Shown: piece by piece, positions 1-51,086 of the stretch
Layout of the letters: the number at the start of each line of letters is the position of its first letter
Numbering within the stretch: position 1 is the first letter of the stretch
From: Eledone cirrhosa
Lineage: Eukaryota
Length of the DNA: 64,000 bases
Assembly (NCBI GenBank): GCA_964016885.1
Contig: OZ024743.1
Location: 79,980,001-80,044,000 of the forward strand
Reading direction: 5' to 3'
Program-made: the position numbers and the translations under genes
Notes under the pieces: generated by a model
Told to the model about the DNA's origin: nothing
What the model saw: only the letters and a program-made list of their open reading frames with translations
The model's database searches: none

Positions 1-2
1 AT

Positions 3-1475
3 TCTCCCGTTCTGTTGCCAGTTGCAGTAGACCGCCTCAAGGAGATCGGGGAACAAGTCCGGCATATTAATATATAGTTCGTAGGGCAGACCATCGAGTC
101 CTGGAGATTTGCGTTTGCCGCATAGGCTCAGCACGTCCCCTATTTCAGCCGCTGAGATCGGCCCGTCGCAGGACCTCGCCTCCCTGTCCGAAAGACGCGG
201 CAGGCCGTCGAGGTATGGACCGAAATCCACATCTCCAACCGGCTCCCCGCCCCTCCCGAACAATTGGGCAAAGTGCCTTTGAAAGGCCTCGCACATTTGC
301 TTAGGTTCAAGGATCAGCCGTCCATCCTGGTCTCGCAAAGACCGGATAGTGGATTTAATCCCACTTTTCGCTTCTGTCACGCGGGCCCAGCTAACAGCTT
401 TGGTCCCCTCGTTTCCCAGAGCACGTATTTTGCTTCGGACAACGCAGCCTTCGTGTTTCGCGTCGAAGAACTGGTTCAAGACCGTTCTCGACGCTTGCAC
501 CCTGGCCACGTTGCCGCTTCTCATTGCCTCTTCAACATTAACTACCAACTCCCTTTCCTTCCTATTTCTATCTGAGGCTAACTCCTTACTAACTCCTATT
601 GAAACTACTCTAATCTCTCTTTTTAGAGAGCCCCACCACCTGTTGTTGACGATGGCGCCCGTCAACTGCTCCTTAACTAAGGTTCTAATCCGGTCCCTGT
701 AAGCTCTACTTGCCGGTAAGGACAAGTTGAGCTTCCAGTAACCGGGCCCCTGCCTATGCGGTCTATCAAGGTGGACTACGCAGGTCACTAACTTGTGGTC
801 TGAATAGCCCACCATGAGCATTTCTGGACAACTTAAAAAGTCCCTATCCTTAATTCTAACTAAGAACCTATCTAGGTACGATCTAGATTGACCACTGTTA
901 TTTGACCAGGTCCAGGTTGGTACAGTCTGAAAATCTAGTCGGTATCTATCGGCCAGGTCGAATCGGCCGATTAACCCCTTAAGGCTGTTGCACCCCCCTC
1001 TATCGGGACATGCCCCTACATAGTCCCAACGTGCATCTAAGATACCATTCCAGTCCCCCACTAAAAGCAAGGAGCGGGACGTCCCTAGAAAAGTCTCCAG
1101 ACGATGGAAGAAGTCCGACCGCATTGCCCCAAAAGGGGCGTATACGGCGACAAGCCTAAAAGCTTCGCCTTCGCCATTGCCAAGGTCCAGAACCACGAGT
1201 CGACTCTCCGGGTCCAAGTGTACCGTCTGTGTAGCGAGGCCCAGATGTTTTTGCAGCAGAACGACAACCCCACCCCCACCTCCGGGCTGACAGAGAGATG
1301 CGTGCATCTCAAAGTCATCAAAGGTGGGGGTTAGCTGTCGCATGCTGCTGATCCGGGCCTCGCAAATAACCATCACATTTACACATTGTGACCTGAGGTC
1401 ACTTAGAAGTTTAGCTTGCTTCCAAGGTGAGCCCAGGCCACGCGCATTTAGACAACCTACTCTTAAGACAGCCAT
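3..1475 (-). CDS. LINE ORF2 (AP endonuclease plus start of the reverse-transcriptase region), partial, open to the window edge
   Basis: Hand translation from the ATG at 1475: MAVLRVGCLNARGL..ICEAR..VYAP..LVGDWN..WTW..YLDRFLV..SDHKLV..GYWKLN..KSPGLDGLPYELY. No stop seen in about 491 codons; absent from the ORF track because it has no stop in the window. Confidence 0.92.
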   Translation of the reverse strand, partial: MAVLRVGCLNARGLGSPWKQAKLLSDLRSQCVNVMVICEARISSMRQLTPTFDDFEMHASLCQPGGGGGVVVLLQKHLGLATQTVHLDPESRLVVLDLGNGEGEAFRLVAVYAPFGAMRSDFFHRLETFLGTSRSLLLVGDWNGILDARWDYVGACPDRGGCNSLKGLIGRFDLADRYRLDFQTVPTWTWSNNSGQSRSYLDRFLVRIKDRDFLSCPEMLMVGYSDHKLVTCVVHLDRPHRQGPGYWKLNLSLPASRAYRDRIRTLVKEQLTGAIVNNRWWGSLKREIRVVSIGVSKELASDRNRKERELVVNVEEAMRSGNVARVQASRTVLNQFFDAKHEGCVVRSKIRALGNEGTKAVSWARVTEAKSGIKSTIRSLRDQDGRLILEPKQMCEAFQRHFAQLFGRGGEPVGDVDFGPYLDGLPRLSDREARSCDGPISAAEIGDVLSLCGKRKSPGLDGLPYELYINMPDLFPDLLEAVYCNWQQNGR

Positions 1476-1498
1476 GTTGGTGGCAAAGAAAGAGGCAC

Positions 1499-3247
1499 TT
1501 ACCTCTCTGCGTCCCGGGGTTCGGGTCGCTCAGTTTCCATGGGGCTGGTGGAGGGGTTGATGGGTGGGGTGGTGGTTTGTGGTGGTGTGGGGGTATTAGT
1601 GTGTGGAGGGGTTGGGATCTTTGGAGTTGTGTGGGTGTTTGAGGAGGGGAGGGGAAAACCTTTCAGGAGGACGCGGTTGAGTGGCCTGGTGCAGGGTGGG
1701 CCCACGTCCTCAGGGTACATGTCTTTTAAAGTTTTGAAAATGTCAAGTGGGATTTTCACCATTTTCAGGTTAGGGAGCCCCATTGCCGTTACGAAATTCG
1801 GCCCTTCGGTTTGTATCGAAGGGTTGGTTTCTACTTTTAAAGTTAGGTTTTCATTGTTTTTGTTTATGTATGTGTAGAGTTTTTGTGTTGTTGTGTTTGT
1901 TTTTGCTTGTTGTTGTTGAGTGAGTTTGCGTTTTATTGTCTATGTTGTGTTGTCAGGTGGGGTTATTTTTGTTTGTGTGGTGTGTGTACGTTTTTTTCTT
2001 TTCACTTTTTGGAAGGGAGCCCCCTCGTCTTCCGACGATATGAGCTCCTCTTCCGTATTGGAGGGGAGGGGTATATCTCCGGGTTGTGTATGAACTGTTT
2101 TTGTATTTGTGTTCTGTGTGGTGGGGCTGGGTGGGACCGTGTTTTGGGTTGTTTTCTTGAGCTGTTGTTGATGTTGTTGTTGTTGTGGTGGTGGTGGTGT
2201 TGATTTTTGTTGTTCTGGTGGAGATGGTAGTGTATTTTGTTGTTTTTGTGATGGTGGTGCTGGTTGTTTTTGTTGTTGTTGTGGTGTTTGTAGCAGTGGT
2301 TTTTTAGTTGTTAGTAGAGGGCAGGCCGTCCTCAGGTGACCTCTGCCAGCGCAGTGGTAACATGAGGGTCTCCTGCCTTCCACTGTGATATTTATGTAGG
2401 TTCGCCCATCCAGTAGCACTCGGTCGGGTATTCCGGAGATTCTCTCAGGTGTCATCTGTAAGAGAACCTCCAGACTTTTCCCCCCGAACAGTCCACTGGT
2501 GGACTCCCCTGCTGAAATTAGTATGTCCTTATCTAGGTCGGTAAATCCTGTTAGGACGGACCAGATGTTAATTTCTGGCGTAGGGCTCCACATTCTTATC
2601 CTTTGTGTTCTTCTTCCTTTATATGTGGGGAAGAAGGTGTATTGTGGTGACACTATAGGTGCCACCGAATATTTCTGAGCCAGCATTTCGTCCTTCATTC
2701 GGACCATAATGCTGGCATACAGCTTTCCTCTTTGAATAAAGAGTATGTCATTTTTCATTTCTTTCAGAACCAGCTCGATTTGACTTTCGGTCAATTGCAC
2801 TGGCTTTCTCGTTTCGTTGGTTATGGTTCTGTAGCTTACGGTATTCTTGTAAATCTGTTCACGCACTTCTTCTGGGGAGTTGATCGTAAAAGAACCATCC
2901 TCCCCAAAAGATACGTATTTTCTAGCCTCTAGCAAATTTTCCTTGGCGTTCGTGATGTCAATGGCTTTGTATTCCGTGGCTCTCCTGAGTGTTTGGGCAA
3001 AAGAAATTTTGTCTTTGTTTGTTGTTGTAATGTTGTTGGTTTCCTTATTTGTGGTGTTATTTTTTTCTTGAAAATTAATTTTTTCATTTGAATTGAAATT
3101 CTTTTTTTCATTGGAGAGGAGGGGTTGTTCAACAGTTTGAACTGTTGTTCCCTCTTTCCCGCTTGTTTTTTTGGTCGGCGTGGCGTTCGCTTCCAATATG
3201 GCGATATCGTTTTCGACGATATCGTTATCAACGATATCGATAAACAT
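1499..3247 (-). pseudogene. LINE ORF1 (gag-like nucleic-acid-binding protein with CCHC zinc knuckle), interrupted by one in-frame TAG at 1940-1942
   Basis: ORF 1940..3247 contains CYHCAGRGHLRTAC. The frame continues without stops past the TAG (TIKRKLTQQQQ...MGLPNLK...) into ORF 1499..1783 and ends at TAA 23 nt before the ORF2 ATG. Confidence 0.85.
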
Positions 3248-3499
3248 TTCTGAAATATTTATTTTTCACCCCAAAAGGGGTGAAAATATATTTACCCGAC
3301 GTCTAGAGTCCCAGACTAGGGGTTACAGTTAATTATACAAAAGAATTCAAAAAAATCCACTCACAAAATTAGCAGGTAAAAATCCAAATCACAGAGCGAT
3401 ATGACACACGTCTACTATCCTCAGACAGACAGACAGACAGACAGACAGACACACAGACTAACAACAAATTAATCAAAGAAGCAAGGTGGAGATAATAAT

Positions 3500-3985: not shown

Positions 3986-4247
3986 TGCTGACCAGGACTA
4001 CCATGTTGCTTGTTTATTTCCTTTCTTTGGTTTGTTTTCATCCTTCTATGTTGTTCACTTGTCCCCCTCGCTTTACGCGAATTACTGGTCCCAATAACTT
4101 TTTTTAGATTATTGCTCGCACCAACCTGAGGTATCTGATTTTTAATGCGATGAAATACCAATGATGGTTGAAAAATCACTGACGAAGGACTATTTTTATC
4201 ATATGTAACCCATGTGCAAACCACGCAGTATTCTTCTTTCTTCTCAT

Positions 4248-4250
<3 letters not shown>
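3986..4250 (+). mobile_element. Short (TA)n-flanked retroelement 3' fragment (probably a PLE pseudo-LTR) carrying a permuted hammerhead-like structure
   Basis: Bounded by (TA)n on both sides; homologous to 10090-10280. Confidence 0.6.
4088..4190 (+). ncRNA. Candidate permuted, pseudoknotted hammerhead ribozyme with kink-turn (copy 1)
   Basis: GGTA-TC (4130-4135), GAAA-TACC (4152-4159), CTGACGA (4179-4185), stem I TGATTTTT/AAAAATCA; covaries with copy 2. Confidence 0.65.
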
Positions 4251-4297
<47 letters not shown>

Positions 4298-7018: not shown

Positions 7019-7022
<4 letters not shown>

Positions 7023-7217
7023 GAACGAGTAGGACCCCGACGGCTGAGCTCAAGCCGTTTCGACGGCTAATTCTGGACTCAGTCCAGAATTAGCCGTCGA
7101 AACGGCTTGAGCTCAGCCGTCGGGGTCCTACTCGTTCCTATTACCCACTCTACTACCCTAAGCATTGAGTACTTTGGTGCGTTATGGTCCACCTGGTTCC
7201 TTGCCACAGTTCCTCCG

Positions 7218-9821: not shown

Positions 9822-10280
9822 TATCTCTTTCGTCTGCGACTTCACAAAACTTATGTTTACCGAATTCGTAGACCAGACCCCTTCTTCTTCTTCTTCTTCT
9901 TCTTCTTCTTCTTCTTCTTCTTCTTCTTCTTCTTCCCCCCTCCCCCCGTTAGACTTGTGCGAAATTCTTTCCTTGCTCACATTTCAACCAGGTTTGATGG
10001 TCTTTTGTCTCTTGTTCACGATTTCACCGAGTTTATATTCATAGAGATCTGGGACTTGTCTATTTCTTCTCACTTTCCGTTGCTTAAACCTTTTTGTTTG
10101 TTACCCTGGCGTCCCCTTTGTTTACGTGTCCCAACGACTTTTTTTAGCCGTTGTTCGCACCAACCTGAGGCATATGGCCCTTAAAGCGATGAAATGCCTG
10201 GGACGGTTGGAGGGTCACTGATGAAGGACTTACTTTTTCATATGCCCCACCATTTGCAACGCGCAGCCATCATTATTATC
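9822..10280 (+). mobile_element. (TA)n-flanked retroelement 3' end (possible RT C-terminus plus 3'UTR/pLTR) with permuted hammerhead
   Basis: Homologous to 3986-4250; upstream translation [10 protein letters not shown]../[16 protein letters not shown] weakly resembles the end of a PLE RT thumb; internal (TTC)n. Confidence 0.55.
10128..10229 (+). ncRNA. Candidate permuted, pseudoknotted hammerhead ribozyme with kink-turn (copy 2)
   Basis: GGCA-TA (10169-10174), GAAA-TGCC (10191-10198), CTGATGA (10218-10224), stem I TGGCCCTT/GAGGGTCA. Confidence 0.65.
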
Positions 10281-10294
10281 ATATATATATATAT

Positions 10295-10505: not shown

Positions 10506-10511
<6 letters not shown>

Positions 10512-11388
10512 AGAATTAGTATATCTACCAACATATGTATACAGATGCATACCTATGCTAGCAAATATATATGTTTTGTCTTAGTAACTTTGTGGTTCTA
10601 TGCAAGGGGATGCAGAATAATTATATGAAAGACGTACATGAGAAAGTTATGAAAATTGACTTACCAAAATTTCACTCCAACTAATTAGTTTCTGTAAGGG
10701 GATATATATGGTTACGGAGCGTATCCACAGAGAAACCTTACGTCATCAGGGAGTCTATTCTCAGCTAAGCTTCCAGGCAATGTGAGGACACTGGGAACTT
10801 ATATAAAAATAATTCAGTGGATGGAAAAAAGCGAGCGGGGACTAGATTCCAAGACATTGAAAAATTCACTGCCTACTTGGTCACGTGGCAAATCAAAAGA
10901 ATCAATCACGTGATACCGAGGTTAATCAGTGAGGAGTGGGGTGCTATTAAGACAGGGCCTAGCCACTACTATTAATCATAGTAGTAATTTCGGCAAGTTT
11001 TGCTCAACAAATAATTTGGAGATAATTATAAAGAATTAGTATATCTACCAACATATGTATACAGATGCATACCTATGCTAGCAAATATAATTCTCAGTGT
11101 CACGTGATTGATTCTTTTGAATTTGCCACTTGACCAAGTAGGCAGTGAATTTTTCAATGTCTTGGAATCTAGTCCCCGCTCTCTTTTTTCCATCCACTGA
11201 ATTATTTTTATATAAGTTCCCACTGTCCTCGCATTGTCTGGAAGCTTAGCTGAGAATAGACTCCCCGATGACGTAAGGTTCCTCTGTGTATACGCTCCGT
11301 AACCATATTTATCCCCTTACAGAAACTAATTAGTTGGAGTGAAATTTTAGTAAGTCAATTTTCATAACTTTCTTATTTACGTCTTTCA

Positions 11389-11392
<4 letters not shown>
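10506..11392. mobile_element. PLE-derived inverted pLTR pair (arms about 10623-10913 and 11100-11392) in (TA)n, each arm with a hammerhead
   Basis: Arms of about 290 bp are reverse complements; additional ~65-bp direct repeat at 10506 and 11026. Confidence 0.8.
10674..10754 (-). ncRNA. Type I hammerhead with long stem II (second copy 11260-11340 on +, core mutated to CCGATGA)
   Basis: ACTCC-CTGATGA-c-GTAAGG...CCTTAC-a-GAAA-CTAATTAG-TT-GGAGT. Confidence 0.7.
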
Positions 11393-11456
<64 letters not shown>

Positions 11457-11459
11457 TTG

Positions 11460-12515
11460 GAGTATTAGGATGAATAGGTTTTTGAAAGTCGTTATAATTT
11501 ATGTGAGAACAGGTAGAGAAATTAAGTTTTAGTTTGGTATTTTTAGATGTAGGATTTTCATTTGGTGTTTGCTGGTAATATTCGGTTGTACGTTTGAAGT
11601 ATTATTGGTGCAAGGTATATAGACTAATTTGTTTTTGTAGCCCCTTCTATCTAAAGCTTCGTTATAAAAGGGCGCGTTTTTATCGAATACATCCTGGTTA
11701 GATGAAAGGTTAGAGATTCTGAGTGAGATGTTATATGCTAGGTTTTTAAGGATAGATATAGGGTGATTGGATTGTGAGTGTATGTAATGTAAGTTTTGGT
11801 TAGGTTTATGGTAAGGTTGGTAGATACCCGTAGATAGGTCTAAAGTTATATCTAGGAAATTGACTATTTTACTGGTGTTTTCAAATGTAATAGTGAGATT
11901 GTAACAGTCTTTGAGGAAAGTTCCAATAAGTTTTTTTTATTATTTTTTTAAAATCTTTTTCTATTTCTGATAGGCTAAGATTAGTGGAAAGAAGAAGACA
12001 GTCATCATGATATAAACCACCTTTAAGGTGGGGAAAAGATGAATTAATGTTAAATAGAAGAAAGAGGCCCACAAGATCGGTAATTTGGGCGGAATCACTA
12101 GAGCCCATAGTTATGTCGAAGAGATTACTATATGTATTTCTGGTCCAGTATTCCTTCTGAAATTCCAGTAGTGTTTGTCTACCGTGCGTGATAATATTAA
12201 TGTCATCCATAGTTAAGTTTGATCTATTTTTGGCAAATATCAAGGCTTTGTTCAGGAGTATGGGTGATATAGAGGAATAATGAGCATCTATATCAAATTG
12301 TAGAAATGAAGCAGATGATTTATTTCTAATATTAGTAAACCAGTTAATTACTTGGGATGTATTTTCCTAGAGTGGTAAGCTAACGTGTTTTCTTAACTGT
12401 GGGATGATTGTATCTAAAAAATGTTTATTAATGATGTCAATATCTGACTTGGAAGGGCGTATAAGTCTTACAGAAGGATTAGAGTTAAAGTTAGATTTGT
12501 GATCTTTCTGGTTAA
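11460..12515 (-). pseudogene. Penelope-like element reverse transcriptase (decayed)
   Basis: KDHKSNF..PSVRLIRPSKS..VINWF..FLQFDIDAHYSSI..ITMGSSDSAQITDLVG..GLYHDDCL..VNFLDITLDL..YIHSQSNHP; contains stops and frameshifts. Confidence 0.9.
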
Positions 12516-12519
12516 AGTG

Positions 12520-13170
12520 TGGTTTTTTCAGTGCCAAAGGTTCAGTTCTAGTAAATATTTTATTTCTTACAACTTAAATAATAATTCACAACCAGTTGAT
12601 ATGATTAGCAATATTGTACCTAATAATACTAGTAACCACTCTCATATAATATCTAGGACATATAGGAGTATTAATAGCAATTGTAGCACTCATATATCTA
12701 ACTCTAATGACTCTTCACACCTTTATCCTCAAAACCGCTTAATCAATAACCATAACTGTAATTGTAGACCTAATAATGTATGCCCTCTTAATGGAAACTG
12801 CCTTGTTAAAAATATTATTTATTCCTGTACTGTCACAACTACCAATTCCAAAACCTATATCGGTTCTACATCGAATAGTTTTAAGACTAGGTATAATTCC
12901 CATCTTCATACCTTTAAGAACTCTAAGCTTAAACATGCAACCTCTTTATCTGATTTCATATCATTTCTGAAGAGTAATAATACACCTTACACCCTAACCT
13001 GGAATGTGATCGCAAAAGCTGCTTTGTATAAACCCCCAATAACCTTTGCATTCTTGAATCCCATACTTCTATTTATTCTAAACTAAATTTATTAAATAGG
13101 AAATCTGAAATGTTTTCCACTTGTCAACATATCAATCACCATTCCTTTTACTATTTTAAACCTAGTAACT
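12520..13170 (+). pseudogene. Penelope-like GIY-YIG endonuclease with Cys-rich linker (decayed); AT-rich 3'UTR continues to about 15200
   Basis: CNCRPNNVCPLNGNCLVKNIIYSC..TYIGSTSNSFKTRYNSH..LTWNVI, then LLNRKSEMFSTCQH in another frame. Confidence 0.88.
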
Positions 13171-24811: not shown

Positions 24812-25603
<792 letters not shown>

Positions 25604-26320: not shown

Positions 26321-26428
26321 AGTATGAATACATGAGTCTGCGTGCGTGTGTGTGTGTGTGTGTGTGAGTATGAATACATGAGTCTGTGTGTGTGTGTGTG
26401 AGTATGAATACATGAGTATGAATACACA
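26146..26428. repeat. Minisatellite GAGTATGAATACATGAGT(C/A) interspersed with (TG)n
   Basis: About 7 repeats read directly. Confidence 0.85.
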
Positions 26429-26429
26429 G

Positions 26430-28590
26430 GTATTACTCAATCTTTAATAGACATATTATTAAACTCTCATATTCCACCACTATGAATTTAGCGCAGAATA
26501 TTAATAGAATTATTAATAGAAACTTAAAACCTAACCAGTATAGCATTAATACCCCTAGCAATATCCAATATAATGTTACGGCTCCCAATAATATAAATTT
26601 AGACAAATGTAATTGTAGAAATAAATCTAACTGTCCTCTAAATAATAATTGTTTAGTTAAAAATATAGTATACAATTGTAATGTCAAAACAAATGAAAAC
26701 TCCTTTAACTATGTCGGCTCTACTTCCACAGACTTTAAATCTCGTTTTAATAACCATAAATGTTCCTTTACGAATATTGGTAAAAAAATCTTCAACTTCT
26801 CTATCTAACTTATTATGGGACCTGAAATCCAAGAATATTAACTATTCTTTACTTTGGAAAATTATTTCCAAAGCTCCTTCATACACTGCTTTATCCCAAA
26901 ATTGTTCTCTTTGTGTTCAAGAAATATTCTTTATACTAAAAATAAGAACTCTATTAATTTGCGAAATAATTTATTCAGTTCCTGCAAACATCATTTAAAC
27001 TCAACTTTTAAATATATATATAAAATGTAATATATGATTTATCTCTTTTACATAATGTCTTCTATATCTATATATGATTCATATCTCTACTTCACATATA
27101 TATACTATATACTTTATATTATTACACCTATCGATAGATTATAAAAAAATGTTTATATGACTGCTTGAAACTCCTTTAAGAAAAATTTTTTTCTTGAAAA
27201 ACTTACGGAAGGTTTTAGGAAAAATCTTATGAACATTTTTTTGAAAATTCCTTTGAAAGATATAGAAAAAAACATTATTTTCATACCTTCCGATATTTTT
27301 ATATTTTTTATATCTCCAAACGTTTTTAATATATATATCCAAATGTTTATATATATGTGGAAAAACATATGATTTTTATATATAGTTTTTTTTTATATAT
27401 ATGTGGAATAACCTATGGTTTATGCTTTAAATATATTCTTAAGATAAATTTTTTTTAATGTTTTAATTTTAATGTTAATGTTTTAACTTTATAGCAAGTA
27501 AATTTATGACTTCGTATAAAATAACATATGGCCCATGTTTTAATTATATTCTTAAGATAAAAAATGTTTAACTTTTTAACTTTATAACATTTAATCCTTA
27601 GAGTCATCTGAGTTCTTAAAAAATCACTTCTAACTTCCTTTACACTTCCTTACTGTTTTTATAATATAATAAGTGGTTATTCCTTTGTAAACTCTCGTAA
27701 ATTTTTCATAAATTTAGAATTATTTGGATGTTTAAATTTTGACTTACAACTTTTAATAAAATAAACTATATTAGTTTTGCTCTAATGTAAAATAATATAT
27801 ATTTATTGAAATAATTTATAATCCTTAACATTTAAACTAATTATTAATATTAAATTATTAAATTAAATCTTTAATATTAAGGTAAATTTTAATCTTTAAT
27901 ATTAAGGTACATTTTAATCTTTAATTTTGATTTCTAATTTTTAATTTTAATTTAATTTTAATCTAATTTTCAACCTATCATTATAAGTATTATAATCAAA
28001 ACGTAATGAATCCTGTATTATAAATATTATTCTTCCACGCTATTCTCATTTCTTCTCTCATTTAGATATACTTAGGCTGTCTATATTTATCTCTTCATGC
28101 ACTCTATTTTCACTATCAATATATATAATCGTTCTTTCTTTCCTCTTCTATCTTTCTCCTTTCTTTTTTTCTTTTTTCTTTTTTTTCGTTTTTCTATTTT
28201 TTTCTCTCTCCTTTACATATCATCTCCTTCCAACAGTTTAATTTAAATAAACCGTTATCTTTTCAACCTTTCGGACATTCATTTGCATACTGACTCATAA
28301 TTTTATATCACCATCAATAAATGTACTATCTCCACTATCCAGGAAGCTCCAACCGTTCAGGTTGTCTTTTTTTCCGGGTATGTCAATATTTATTTATAAA
28401 ACAAATCTGTAATTTATCTGATGAAAGCGCACCATAATTTGCCTTGGTTGTTCTTGAAATATGTATAATAAAATAAATATGGTTTTATAAATATAGTTTC
28501 CATTTATTAATATATTGTTTATTTACTCCACTAACTGTTGAGTGCTTTATAGCAGTTATAAAAATGTTTAAATTAAATATAACCTCTGCA
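26430..28590 (+). mobile_element. 5'-truncated PLE: frameshifted GIY-YIG (26440-27000), long AT-rich 3'UTR, terminal hammerhead (28413-28472)
   Basis: KLSYSTT..CNCRNKSNCPLNNNCLVKNIVYNC..YVGSTSTDFKSRFNNH../LWKIISKA..CSLCVQE; TTTAT-CTGATGA-..-GAAA-TATGTA-TA-ATAAA. Confidence 0.88.
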
Positions 28591-36571: not shown

Positions 36572-37710
36572 ATATGGTATAAACGTTTGGAGTTGTAAGG
36601 CCAAGACAATGCAGGTATGGATATAGAATATAAATGCAAATGCAAAATATATTGTTGACAATTAGTCTTTTACCTTTAGCCATCCGCAGAGCTATCAGAC
36701 GAGAGGGACTAGATATCCAACTAACCCACTCAGTACCTTCTCTACGCGGACAGTTAACCAAAAGACACTCAACCAGACATGACAGCCGCTGCAGGCTAGC
36801 CAACAGCCCCATCAACGACACAGACCTATGCCACCAGGCCTGCGTCGTATACAGATTAGAGTGCGACAAATGCAGGAATTTCTACGTAGGTAGCACCACC
36901 AGACCACTTCACATAAGAATAAAAGAACACCTCAATACTAACGCTTCCTCATTTAAGAAATACCTAGTGAAATACATAAACACCGACAAAACATAACAGT
37001 TAGGATAGAAGCTAAGGAAAGAAACCTCGGCAATCTTAGAATTAAAGAAGCATTAATTTTAGACAAAACGCAACCACCAATCAATAATAGACTAGAACTC
37101 AACACCCAATTTTTAACATGATAGAGCACCTAACCCCACACTTACACCCCCTCTCACACACACGCACACACACACGCACGCGCGCACACACACACACACA
37201 TACACACACACGCTTACACCTCCACTTATTCTCTCACACACACATACACACACAAAGACCAGTTTTAACATGATAGAGCATCTAGCCTCCACATTTACGT
37301 ATAGACATATCTTCTCACACTCACACACACACGCGCATACTTACGCCTTCACGTATTCTCCCACACACTTAAACATACATGTACAACACTCCTTTTAAAG
37401 GGAGACTACTCTTTATCCACCTAACCTTCACTCTCTGACATTAGAGATAGAATGGAATCTCTATATCATTTCCTGTCAGCATAACTTGGCAAGCTAATTA
37501 GAACACTGGATTAACCTCTTTACTTCCCTCCGAAGAAGAGATATTATCTCGAAAATTAAGGATATTTAAATAAATTTAAGGTAAAAGACTAATTGTCAAC
37601 AATATCTTTTGCATTTGCATTTATATTCTATATCCATACCTGCATTGTCTTGGCCTTACAACTTCAAACGTTTATACCTTATTACACAATGCTTCAAGTT
37701 AACTACAACT
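36572..37710 (+). mobile_element. 5'-truncated PLE with GIY-YIG remnant (36680-37115), hammerhead (37527-37561, CCGAAGA core) and an inverted pLTR piece at its 5' end
   Basis: CHQACVVYRLECDKCRNFYVGSTTRPLHIRIKEH; 36577-36675 is the reverse complement of about 37580-37678. Confidence 0.88.
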
Positions 37711-46069: not shown

Positions 46070-46824
46070 CTAATTTGCATATCGAGTGAGTTAATCGGCC
46101 GGGCGCACCGAAAACGATAAACGGAAAAAATGAAACGAAATTTCATTTCTCACTCTTAGTACGGCTGTTACTTAAATATAAGTATGTATACGTACATACA
46201 TATATGTATACAGACGTACAGTAGTATGTATATATATACATACATGCACACATATATATATGGACGTATGGATTTACCGAGCATTTATTATGATGCTCGG
46301 TTTGTTTGTAAACAAACATCCCGAATTAAGCCGTACAGTGTTTAGCAACCATCGTTTCACTCTGTATACATATATGTATGTACGTATACATACTTATATT
46401 TAAGTAACAGCCGTACTAAGAGTGAGAAATGAAATTTCGTTTCATTTTTTCCGTTTATCGTTTTCGGTGCGCCCGGCCGATTAACTCACTCGATATGCAG
46501 ATTAGGCTGCTCAGCCGTTAATATGCATTAGGAAAGTATATACTTTCAGACGTTCAATCCTCTGGAGGGAAGGTATACGGTGCTGACGATAGCTAATAAG
46601 CTTGAAACTAGTACATTGTTCCTTTGTCAGTGTTGAACAAAAGGGCAACGATGGTTGCTAAACACTGTACGGCTTAATTCGGGATGTTTGTTTACAAACA
46701 AACCGAGCATTATAATAAATGCTCGGTAAATCCATAATACGTCCATATATATATGTGTGCATGTATGTATATATATACATACTACTGTACGTCTGTATAC
46801 ATATTTGTATGTACGTATACATAG

Positions 46825-49974: not shown

Positions 49975-51086
49975 CGATGAATTAGTTTTGCGAGGTTTTT
50001 GATATAAAATCGTGTGTCGAAACAAATATTGTTATACTTGGGGAGGGTCATATTTGTGTAATAATATTGCCAGAATTAATAACAGAACACACTCACTGTT
50101 TGGTTGTAGAAAGGCCCTGAGAAAGACCCACTTAAAGATTAAGGTTGTAGAAAAGCCAGGAACCACCATAAAATACCTGATCAGCAAAACCTACCCTTTT
50201 AAGAAAACCCACTGTACTAATAGGAAATGTATTATATGTAAAGTAAATCACCGGATAAACTGTAAAACTAGAAACGTAGTCTATAGCATAAGATGTACAG
50301 AGGGTACTTGCAGAAACACGACAACAACATACATAGGTGAGACAGCTCGTAGCATAGGTGAAAGGATAGACCAACACTGGGGGGAACTAAAAGGACGAAA
50401 AAATGGTTCAGTACTATACGAACATGCCAGACAACAACACGACGGTAACATAGACAACATAGAAATTAGAATAATATCTAAACATAGAAATGACCCAGCA
50501 GATAGGCAAATCAGAGAGGCCAGCGAAATAGAACCTAGAAGGCCAAAGCTAAACAGAAAAAATGAATGGAATAACAACACCCAAACAAACAATACTGACC
50601 TAAGAGAAGTATGAATAAATAAATACATACACAAGAACAATAACAACAAACACATATAAACACACACTAGTAAACTAAGATAGAATACAATAACCAATAC
50701 ACAGTCACCCAAACACGAACACACATCAAATACTATACACACACGCAAACGCATGCGCAGAGAAAAAAATAAAAATAAAAAAATAAAATAAACAGACTAA
50801 ATAAAGATGGCGTAGGCAAACAATACAACAGGAGGAAACATAATAGCACCACTGACGATGTTGCAGATGTGCAACGAAATAACTTTGTTAGACTATATAT
50901 ATGTGTTTGTGTCTATATTATATTTGTATATTTGACCGTTGGACAGTCAATGGTAACATTGAGGACCGAATAAATTAAATTAACCGATATAAAAGACACA
51001 GAAGCGAAAACCAACCAAACAGTGAGTGTGTTCTGTTATTAATTCTGGCACAATATTATTACACAAATATGACCCTCCCCAAGTAT

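Follow-up and report, generated by a model that had tools for sequence, protein, structure and literature searches.

The window analysed here is a stretch of 64,000 nucleotides from the Eledone cirrhosa genome (contig OZ024743.1), a genome of 3.0 Gb. It contains two insertions of non-coding repeats, from families A and B, and each insertion carries one copy of a hammerhead-like motif. The coordinates of the insertions, of both motif copies and of the parts of copy 2 are collected in Table 1. The motif has the three conserved blocks of a hammerhead ribozyme in the order cleavage site, GAAA, CUGAnGA from 5' to 3' (S-G-C), which is a non-circular permutation, and all partner strands lie inside 102 nt. 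The sequence elements listed for copy 2 in the original prediction were all located where it had placed them. Its description of the motif as a permuted hammerhead holds for the complete core and the block order, but the form is not the plain one, as stem II is split. The strands that would make an ordinary stem II, following A9 and preceding G12, show at most one consecutive pair in 10 of the 11 lineages described below and two in the other. Beyond the 10.1-11.1 pair, these two strands pair with different upstream partners to give helices a and c, which flank hairpin b. The predicted geometry is one in which the 10.1-11.1 pair opens into a four-way junction of helix a, hairpin b and helix c.

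Table 1. Insertions, motif copies and motif parts in the window; the parts are those of copy 2.
Feature	Position	Strand	Description
Family A insertion	3986..4251	+	roughly half of a monomer of ~525 bp, flanked by (TA)n runs
Motif, copy 1	4088..4190	+	predicted cut after C4135
Family B insertion	9824..10281	+	truncated at the 5' end, ~0.65 of a monomer of ~700 bp, flanked by (TA)n runs
Split-stem-II, SGC-order hammerhead-like motif, copy 2	10128..10229	+	evidence: substitution comparison, 11-lineage alignment, at least 40 identical genomic copies
Helix a, 5' strand	10128..10131	+	partner strand 10226-10229; this helix closes the motif; pairs changed on both sides in lineages K and M; register shifted by 1 nt in D
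Hairpin b	10132..10153	+	8 bp with one A.C mismatch in copy 2, 6-nt loop; arm of the predicted four-way junction
Helix c, 5' strand	10155..10158	+	pairs with 10186-10189; stands in for distal stem II
Helix d, 5' strand	10160..10165	+	pairs with 10205-10210; ties the far ends of stems I and III
Block S	10169..10181	+	stem III strand 10169-10173 (U16.1 = 10173), H17 = A10174, stem I strand 10175-10181
Block G	10186..10198	+	helix c 3' strand, 11.1 = 10190, GAAA 10191-10194, stem III strand 10195-10198
Helix d 3' strand and block C	10205..10229	+	helix d 10205-10210, stem I 10211-10217, CUGAUGA 10218-10224, 10.1 = 10225, helix a 3' strand
3' tail	10230..10281	+	holds the two insertion ends used preferentially, near +65 and +110 relative to the predicted cut

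Copies 1 and 2 differ at 23 of 102 aligned positions when one extra hairpin base of copy 1 is removed. Six Watson-Crick pairs are changed on both sides (10135/10150, 10136/10149, 10171/10196, 10178/10214, 10179/10213 and 10180/10212), in agreement with the approximately six double-sided substitutions claimed originally. When the same 23 substitutions were placed at random non-core positions with their spectrum kept, six or more double changes arose in 101 of 200,000 trials (P = 5e-4), a value that is optimistic because the fold itself was read from these two copies. Some details of the helices required correction. Stem I has 6 conserved base pairs, 7 in some families, but the eighth pair formerly assigned to it depends on a private G-to-A change of copy 1 at position 4171; of the two wobbles placed in this stem, one lies inside it, whereas the other rests on the same private change. 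G is kept at 4171 in most family A copies and the base belongs to the helix CCAACC/GGTTGG, so that the private change breaks the end pair of helix d. The side hairpin does contain double changes, as had been claimed, but its pair 10137/10148 breaks to A.C, which the claim did not mention. The flanks had been described as diverged; however, the 3' flank is still alignable for ~70 nt downstream, and the whole alignment stands at 73.5% over 185 columns.

For a wider comparison, one natural copy per lineage was aligned for 11 lineages, nine of which had no role in proposing the fold. Pairing was found in 96.5% of 374 cells, and 21 of 34 pairs are changed on both sides, with all six helices included; the three helices earlier listed as merely retained are among them. 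The pairings are thus preferentially maintained in the larger alignment, and the earlier proposal of selection on RNA structure is supported. The observed covariation was matched by 0 of 500 column shuffles, a count that is not a probability and takes no account of kinship, and sliding the partners by 1-3 columns lowers pairing to 26-45%. Parsing by hand, with a 1-nt register shift for lineage D, gave 353 of 363 cells paired and more than one Watson-Crick type at 22 of 33 pairs. When the changes were placed on a tree built from flanking sequence alone, the two partners of a pair were seen to change in step; in these flanks mean identity is 56% and 6 of 112 ungapped columns are invariant.

The double changes are spread over the whole motif. 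Stem I, which adjoins H17 and C3, has 6 bp that are 98.5% paired, with 5 of 6 pairs double-changed, and stem III, which starts at A15.1-U16.1, has 5 bp that are 96.4% paired, with two pairs double-changed. Helices c and d are 100% paired, with double changes at 2 of 4 and 5 of 6 pairs respectively, and hairpin b has them at 4 of 8. Helices a, c and d, identical between copies 1 and 2, covary in lineages C, F, J, K and M. The 10.1-11.1 pair takes part in the covariation, with four types (A-U in three lineages, U-A in three, G.U in two and G-C in one); the other two lineages, E and F, have the mismatches A.A and C.A, and both families spread nonetheless. The stem III double change is also present in contigs of three other organisms that span the motif. 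One alternative attributes the paired changes to GC drift or to chance between two repeats, and indeed all six double changes between copies 1 and 2 run from A-T to the G-C type. However, the shuffle that preserved this spectrum still gave the low probability quoted above, the lineages beyond these two copies include transversion swaps, C-G to G-C and T-A to A-T among them, and the 11-lineage alignment refutes it, leaving this explanation a negligible probability. That the motif is a conserved RNA structure is, on the pattern of substitutions, nearly certain. A minor variation was seen in lineages J, K and M (L334, L479 and L485), in which the 3' strand of helix a is followed by one base and then by a near copy of its own partner; an alternative pairing is possible there.

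The catalytic core shows the variation expected of a hammerhead. C3, U4, G5, A6, G8, A9, GAAA and U16.1 are invariant in all 11 lineages, in an alignment whose parser was anchored on the core but whose families were found by DNA similarity. Variation at N7 (U, C or A) and at H17 (A or C, never G) stays within hammerhead rules. The spacing from GAAA to CUGA is 27 nt in 11/11 lineages. The family majorities agree with the chosen copies at every core position, and the core is intact in all 42 family B copies. Within the older families, private changes per site amount to 0.022 in the core, 0.033 in the stems and 0.047 in the loops, all three rates being lowered by the choice of copies by similarity. 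As core, stems and loops mutate alike within families, inserted copies appear to decay while the founders of families keep the fold.

The two copies in the window had been taken for remains of active ancestors. They represent instead two separate, recently expanded families: a search with copy 2 returned 719 first-look candidates, and all 40 that were scored were 100% identical, while copy 1 returned 1,205 candidates, of which the 40 that were scored reached 98-100%. Further families (C, with 10 matches; D, E, F and K; and the older M) came to light through bystander copies, as did the sparsely sampled lineages G, H and J plus four more diverged copies. Across the four largest contigs, 80 stretches of 10 kb taken at even spacing contained six insertion loci and the reversed control none, which extrapolates to a genome total of ~22,000 loci (95% interval 8,000-49,000). 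The units are tandem and non-coding, pyrimidine-rich in families A and B, 510-764 bp long with a GC content of 0.40-0.45, and are set in (TA)n; the longest ATG frame on doubled units is 70-148 aa, and there is one CUGAnGA per unit. Insertions range from 0.2 to 2.2 units in length, which fits a circle or a multimeric transcript. Among unusual arrangements, one locus (L152:500-2600, minus strand) has three tandem 320-bp derivative units that lack a complete core followed by one full unit, another (L139) has a composite unit of 838 bp, and at the unlinked loci L302 and L304 (~1604-1640) an identical truncation 15 nt past the cut is joined to foreign sequence.

Comparison with known hammerheads places the motif outside existing descriptions. 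Rfam covariance models gave no hammerhead match in 10050-10290 at E values up to 10. For the whole window at E up to 1, the 150 matches listed out of 273 were all to simple repeats and none to a hammerhead; the classic core-plus-GTCC pattern had zero matches, and the type I hammerhead fold is absent from the repeat units. The nearest relatives are the type-SGC and type-CSG hammerheads of Eckert et al. 2023 (PMC10085705). The motif resembles them in its core nucleotides, and type SGC in particular in its block order, its short linker from stem I to stem II and an extra helix that ties these two stems. In those types, however, stem II is an ordinary one formed between blocks C and G, and the same paper assumes that it cannot be interrupted, whereas here it consists of one pair and a predicted four-way junction with three extra helices. 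The motif therefore has the S, G, C order of the published SGC definition but lacks an uninterrupted block C forming stem II with block G; the upstream strand c-A-d takes the roles of the 3' end of the SGC block C, namely a stem II strand followed by a pseudoknot. Since both the published definition and Rfam failed to take it in, we class the motif as working like an SGC hammerhead and not as a member of that type. Its topology may be regarded as that of an SGC hammerhead whose two ends have been joined and whose chain has then been opened at a new place, within stem II. Scans for the pattern in metagenome contigs (at least 120 loci) and in viral contigs (18 loci) gave no homolog; among the matches listed, one of 138 loci passed a loose SGC scan, but the other helices were missing there, and the best profile E value was 0.02.

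Several observations bear on the predicted cleavage between 10174 and 10175. Among 303 upstream halves, 281 read through the core, and 13 of the other 22 stop exactly at the predicted bond. These 13 junctions, spread over 11 of 30 loci of family E, join the base just ahead of the predicted cut without overlap to monomer position 204, so that the homologous bond is the exact breakpoint of a family E derivative. The units preceding the junction share a hairpin-loop variant, and the 13 cases therefore probably descend from one ancestral event that was then amplified. None of the other junctions recurs or is blunt among the 18 distinct non-microsatellite internal ones, in a census made without families C, K and M and after 31 jumps within the (CTT)n repeat of family B had been set aside as changes in microsatellite length; a junction at the cut would be expected by chance at about 18 in 520, or ~3-4%. 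An RNA that ended at the cut and was then ligated, or was jumped onto by reverse transcriptase, would explain it, and the breakpoint speaks, if indirectly, for cleavage. Family A loci picked by sequence upstream of the cut read through it in 30 of 30 cases, which rules out a linear unit ending at the cut as the usual template. Insertion arms that end at most 1 nt from the cut (L144/L145 and L102) overlap the TA target and were not counted as support.

Of seven sequences, five or six gave helices a, b, d and III (hairpin b in 7/7) in single-strand folding, which admits no pseudoknots. The z scores over the seven range from -0.9 to -3.2, and copy 2 alone is not unusual (z = -1.0). The nested fold predicted for copy 2 differs in part from the model; it has -27.7 kcal/mol, while the nested part of the model, its pseudoknot helices uncounted, has -19.9 kcal/mol. 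Two RNA runs (X15 and X20) matched only a simple-repeat piece and are uninformative on expression; a third (X8) covered part of the stretch. Published assays give a mixed precedent: an anole Penelope-like element (PLE) could insert in vitro without its hammerhead, which required protein for cutting (PMC11167929), and among frog retrozyme dimers only one of nine cut in vitro (bioRxiv 10.64898/2026.07.22.740005). Self-cleavage at the predicted site, after A10174, is very likely.

The insertions have a characteristic anatomy. At loci chosen for holding the motif, 163 of the 3' ends abut TA, and 158 of these lie in one of two bins, +60-90 or +105-135 relative to the cut and ~48 nt apart; this choice of loci forces the ends downstream but does not force their clustering. 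The 5' ends are scattered over the unit. Among inverted insertions, 25 of 33 have one arm ending at each bin, and all 29 inversions of the junction census are joined 5' to 5'. This matches the pattern of tails, tandems and inversions given for PLEs in PMC8557442, and two internal start sites of reverse transcription have been shown for the anole PLE (PMC11167929). The two-bin 3' ends and 5'-5' inversions thus point to PLE-like insertion anatomy, and the two ends in the 3' tail are presumably sites at which reverse transcription starts. Mobilisation of the element by a PLE is highly probable.

Remnants of PLEs also occur in the window. Fragments of Penelope-like reverse transcriptase and GIY-YIG frames lie at 11529-13086, 26422-26808, 36634-36996 and 50003-50614, three of them with a Pfam GIY-YIG match just under the cut-off, and the family of the fragment at 50003 has copies that are 92-97% identical at L079, L102, L118 and L022. 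Elsewhere in the genome (L439-L458), long open Neptune-like PLE frames of up to ~900 aa have a C-terminal GIY-YIG, and some form perfect inverted pairs. Other repeats, at 10510-11400 and 7020-7145, are inverted-duplicated between TA runs, head-to-head as in PLE insertions.

A particular PLE clade, Naiad, was examined further. In PMC8557442, Naiads are said to have no canonical hammerhead, only flags for 'HHR_core' and 'HHR_half_core' without a fold, and cephalopod Naiads are described as long inactive. By eye we examined 27 of the 54 consensus 3' ends in the supplement of that paper, mostly over the last 600 nt, with names assigned by file order. Clear non-circular hammerheads were seen in this way at 12 of the 27, six CSG and six SGC. 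The CSG examples (Parc, Nbra-2, Nbra-3, Hcon, Hpol and Smim) appear to have stems I, II and III plus a pseudoknot of 9-16 bp. Two SGC examples (Ppla and Lpol) have a short stem II and a long S-to-G insert, and the other four (Ovul, Obim, Movir-2 and Chem-3) show the same split stem II as the motif in the window. Of the remaining ends, Esco and Bfor are probable, Dst-3 and Chem-4 ambiguous, and eleven are without a motif in the text seen. The 3' end of Naiad_Ovul, again as read by eye in the supplement, has the same helices, the same 27-nt spacing from GAAA to CUGA and the hairpin loop of lineages K and J, and it ends about 117-120 nt after the cut; loop sequences and spacing are thus common to it and the window families, while the helix sequences differ.

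Within this genome, no Naiad ORF was found in the 1.9 Mb examined, a short Naiad_Ovul motif had no exact match, and limited searches found no autonomous partner sharing the terminal sequence. Among 50 GIY-YIG loci, no PLE ORF carried the motif, which occurred there only as separate TA-flanked insertions. It seems probable that Naiads of cnidarians, nematodes, arthropods and molluscs carry non-circular hammerheads and that ~20,000 Naiad-derived retrozymes of the split form are present in this genome. That the mobilising PLE is specifically a Naiad is somewhat less probable, though still favored. Another clade, Neptune-like or Hydra-like, both of which are present, may have moved a ribozyme of the same kind; this is possible but clearly the less probable choice. 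The long open Neptune-like frames, the lack of a Naiad in the genome DNA examined and a preference for (TA)n targets common to Naiad and Hydra, as reported in PMC8557442, all speak for it. On the other hand, the motif was found in the 3' region proper of 0 of 20 PLE loci with long frames, and the same architecture was met, by eye, only in the Naiad consensus sequences seen.

Taken together, the motif is likely to be a self-cleaving ribozyme, cutting after A10174, of a non-autonomous retrozyme that is likely copied by a Penelope-like reverse transcriptase, probably that of a Naiad. In the proposed mechanism, stems I and III would form as pseudoknots, and helix c, with a linker of 4-5 nt to stem I, would stack on the 10.1-11.1 pair in the role of stem II. 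Stems I and II would be tied to each other by the strand c-A-d, a task that falls to loop-loop contacts in ordinary hammerheads. Transcription would read through the tandem units, and its products would be cut to unit length and possibly circularised. The PLE protein would nick (TA)n DNA and start reverse transcription at either of two sites just downstream of the ribozyme, giving copies that are 5'-truncated, partly tandem and often inverted. Selection would then apply to those RNAs from which new families arise, and not to every single inserted copy.

Two other accounts of the fold have to be set against this one. The fold might be real but catalytically dead or incidental, a hammerhead-derived signal for binding by the PLE protein or for initiation of reverse transcription. 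The absence of an ordinary stem II, the mismatched 10.1-11.1 pair in two successful families, the position of the motif next to the preferred 3' ends and the insertion of a PLE in vitro without hammerhead cutting (PMC11167929) are all compatible with such a signal. It would not be expected, however, to keep the catalytic letters invariant while N7 and H17 vary by hammerhead rules, to have a blunt junction exactly at the scissile bond, or to maintain the 10.1-11.1 pair in 9 of 11 lineages by means of four pair types, and we consider it improbable. Slightly more weight, although still little, is given to the possibility that cutting takes place only in a dimer, in trans or with the aid of protein, so that the single-chain fold is not the working unit. 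The units are tandem, the model requires two pseudoknots and competes in copy 2 with the more stable nested fold noted above, and protein assisted the anole hammerhead. Against this, the partner strands all lie within 102 nt at a fixed spacing, and in four of five monomers examined as dimers the neighbouring unit supplied no conventional stem II.

The units of the window combine features of several known elements. Animal non-LTR retrozymes, as described by Cervera and de la Pena 2020 (PMC7229834) and Li et al. 2026 (10.64898/2026.07.22.740005), are likewise non-coding tandem repeats of a few hundred bp, with a GC content of 40-45%, one hammerhead core per unit, forms from monomers to multimers and a link to PLEs. 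They are defined by type I hammerheads, however, whereas the window units lack the type I fold. Naiad PLEs (Craig et al. 2021, PMC8557442) share with the units (TA)n targets, 5' truncation, partial tandems, inverted 5' copies, a tail at one end and, in four consensus 3' ends read by eye, the split-stem-II motif, but the window units have no ORF. Non-autonomous Chlamys elements such as MRC1, treated in the same paper, are also non-coding PLE derivatives with head-to-tail insertions; no permuted hammerhead is described for them there, whereas the window units carry a motif like one. No published description of a split-stem-II SGC hammerhead or of a permuted hammerhead in Naiads was found in a search that lay largely outside subscription journals and preprint supplements, and the accessible parts of PMC13725137 and PMC13159263 contain nothing on the motif.

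In PMC10085705, SGC hammerheads were found only in metatranscriptomes and CSG only in metagenomes, with one weak GCS candidate as the sole find in genomes of known organisms; the motif described here, in contrast to SGC, is present at high copy in an animal genome. If our interpretation is correct, non-circularly permuted hammerheads would move from metatranscriptome contigs to animal genomes, with a host element, and would be common parts of such genomes. The hammerhead core would function even with an interrupted stem II, in a topology beyond the six block orders thought to be exhaustive, and for that reason would have been missed by descriptor and Rfam searches. It would also answer the puzzle of Naiads that have no canonical hammerhead although some have the core letters, and counts of retrozymes that relied on type I descriptors would be too low.

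The window also contains hammerheads of the ordinary kind. Two type I hammerheads, with a 6-bp stem I and a 4-bp stem II, lie in another repeat at 46575-46625 (plus strand) and 58703-58653 (minus strand). Four further sites, at 25313, 50852 and 56572 on the plus strand and 53880 on the minus strand, have CUGAnGA, a hairpin and GAA; these failed the strict scan and by eye resemble type I hammerheads of PLE ends. At the left end of the window, on the minus strand of 1-3265, a 441-aa frame with a zinc-knuckle-like motif is followed by endonuclease-like fragments; it has no Pfam match and by eye appears to be a LINE ORF1/ORF2 remnant.
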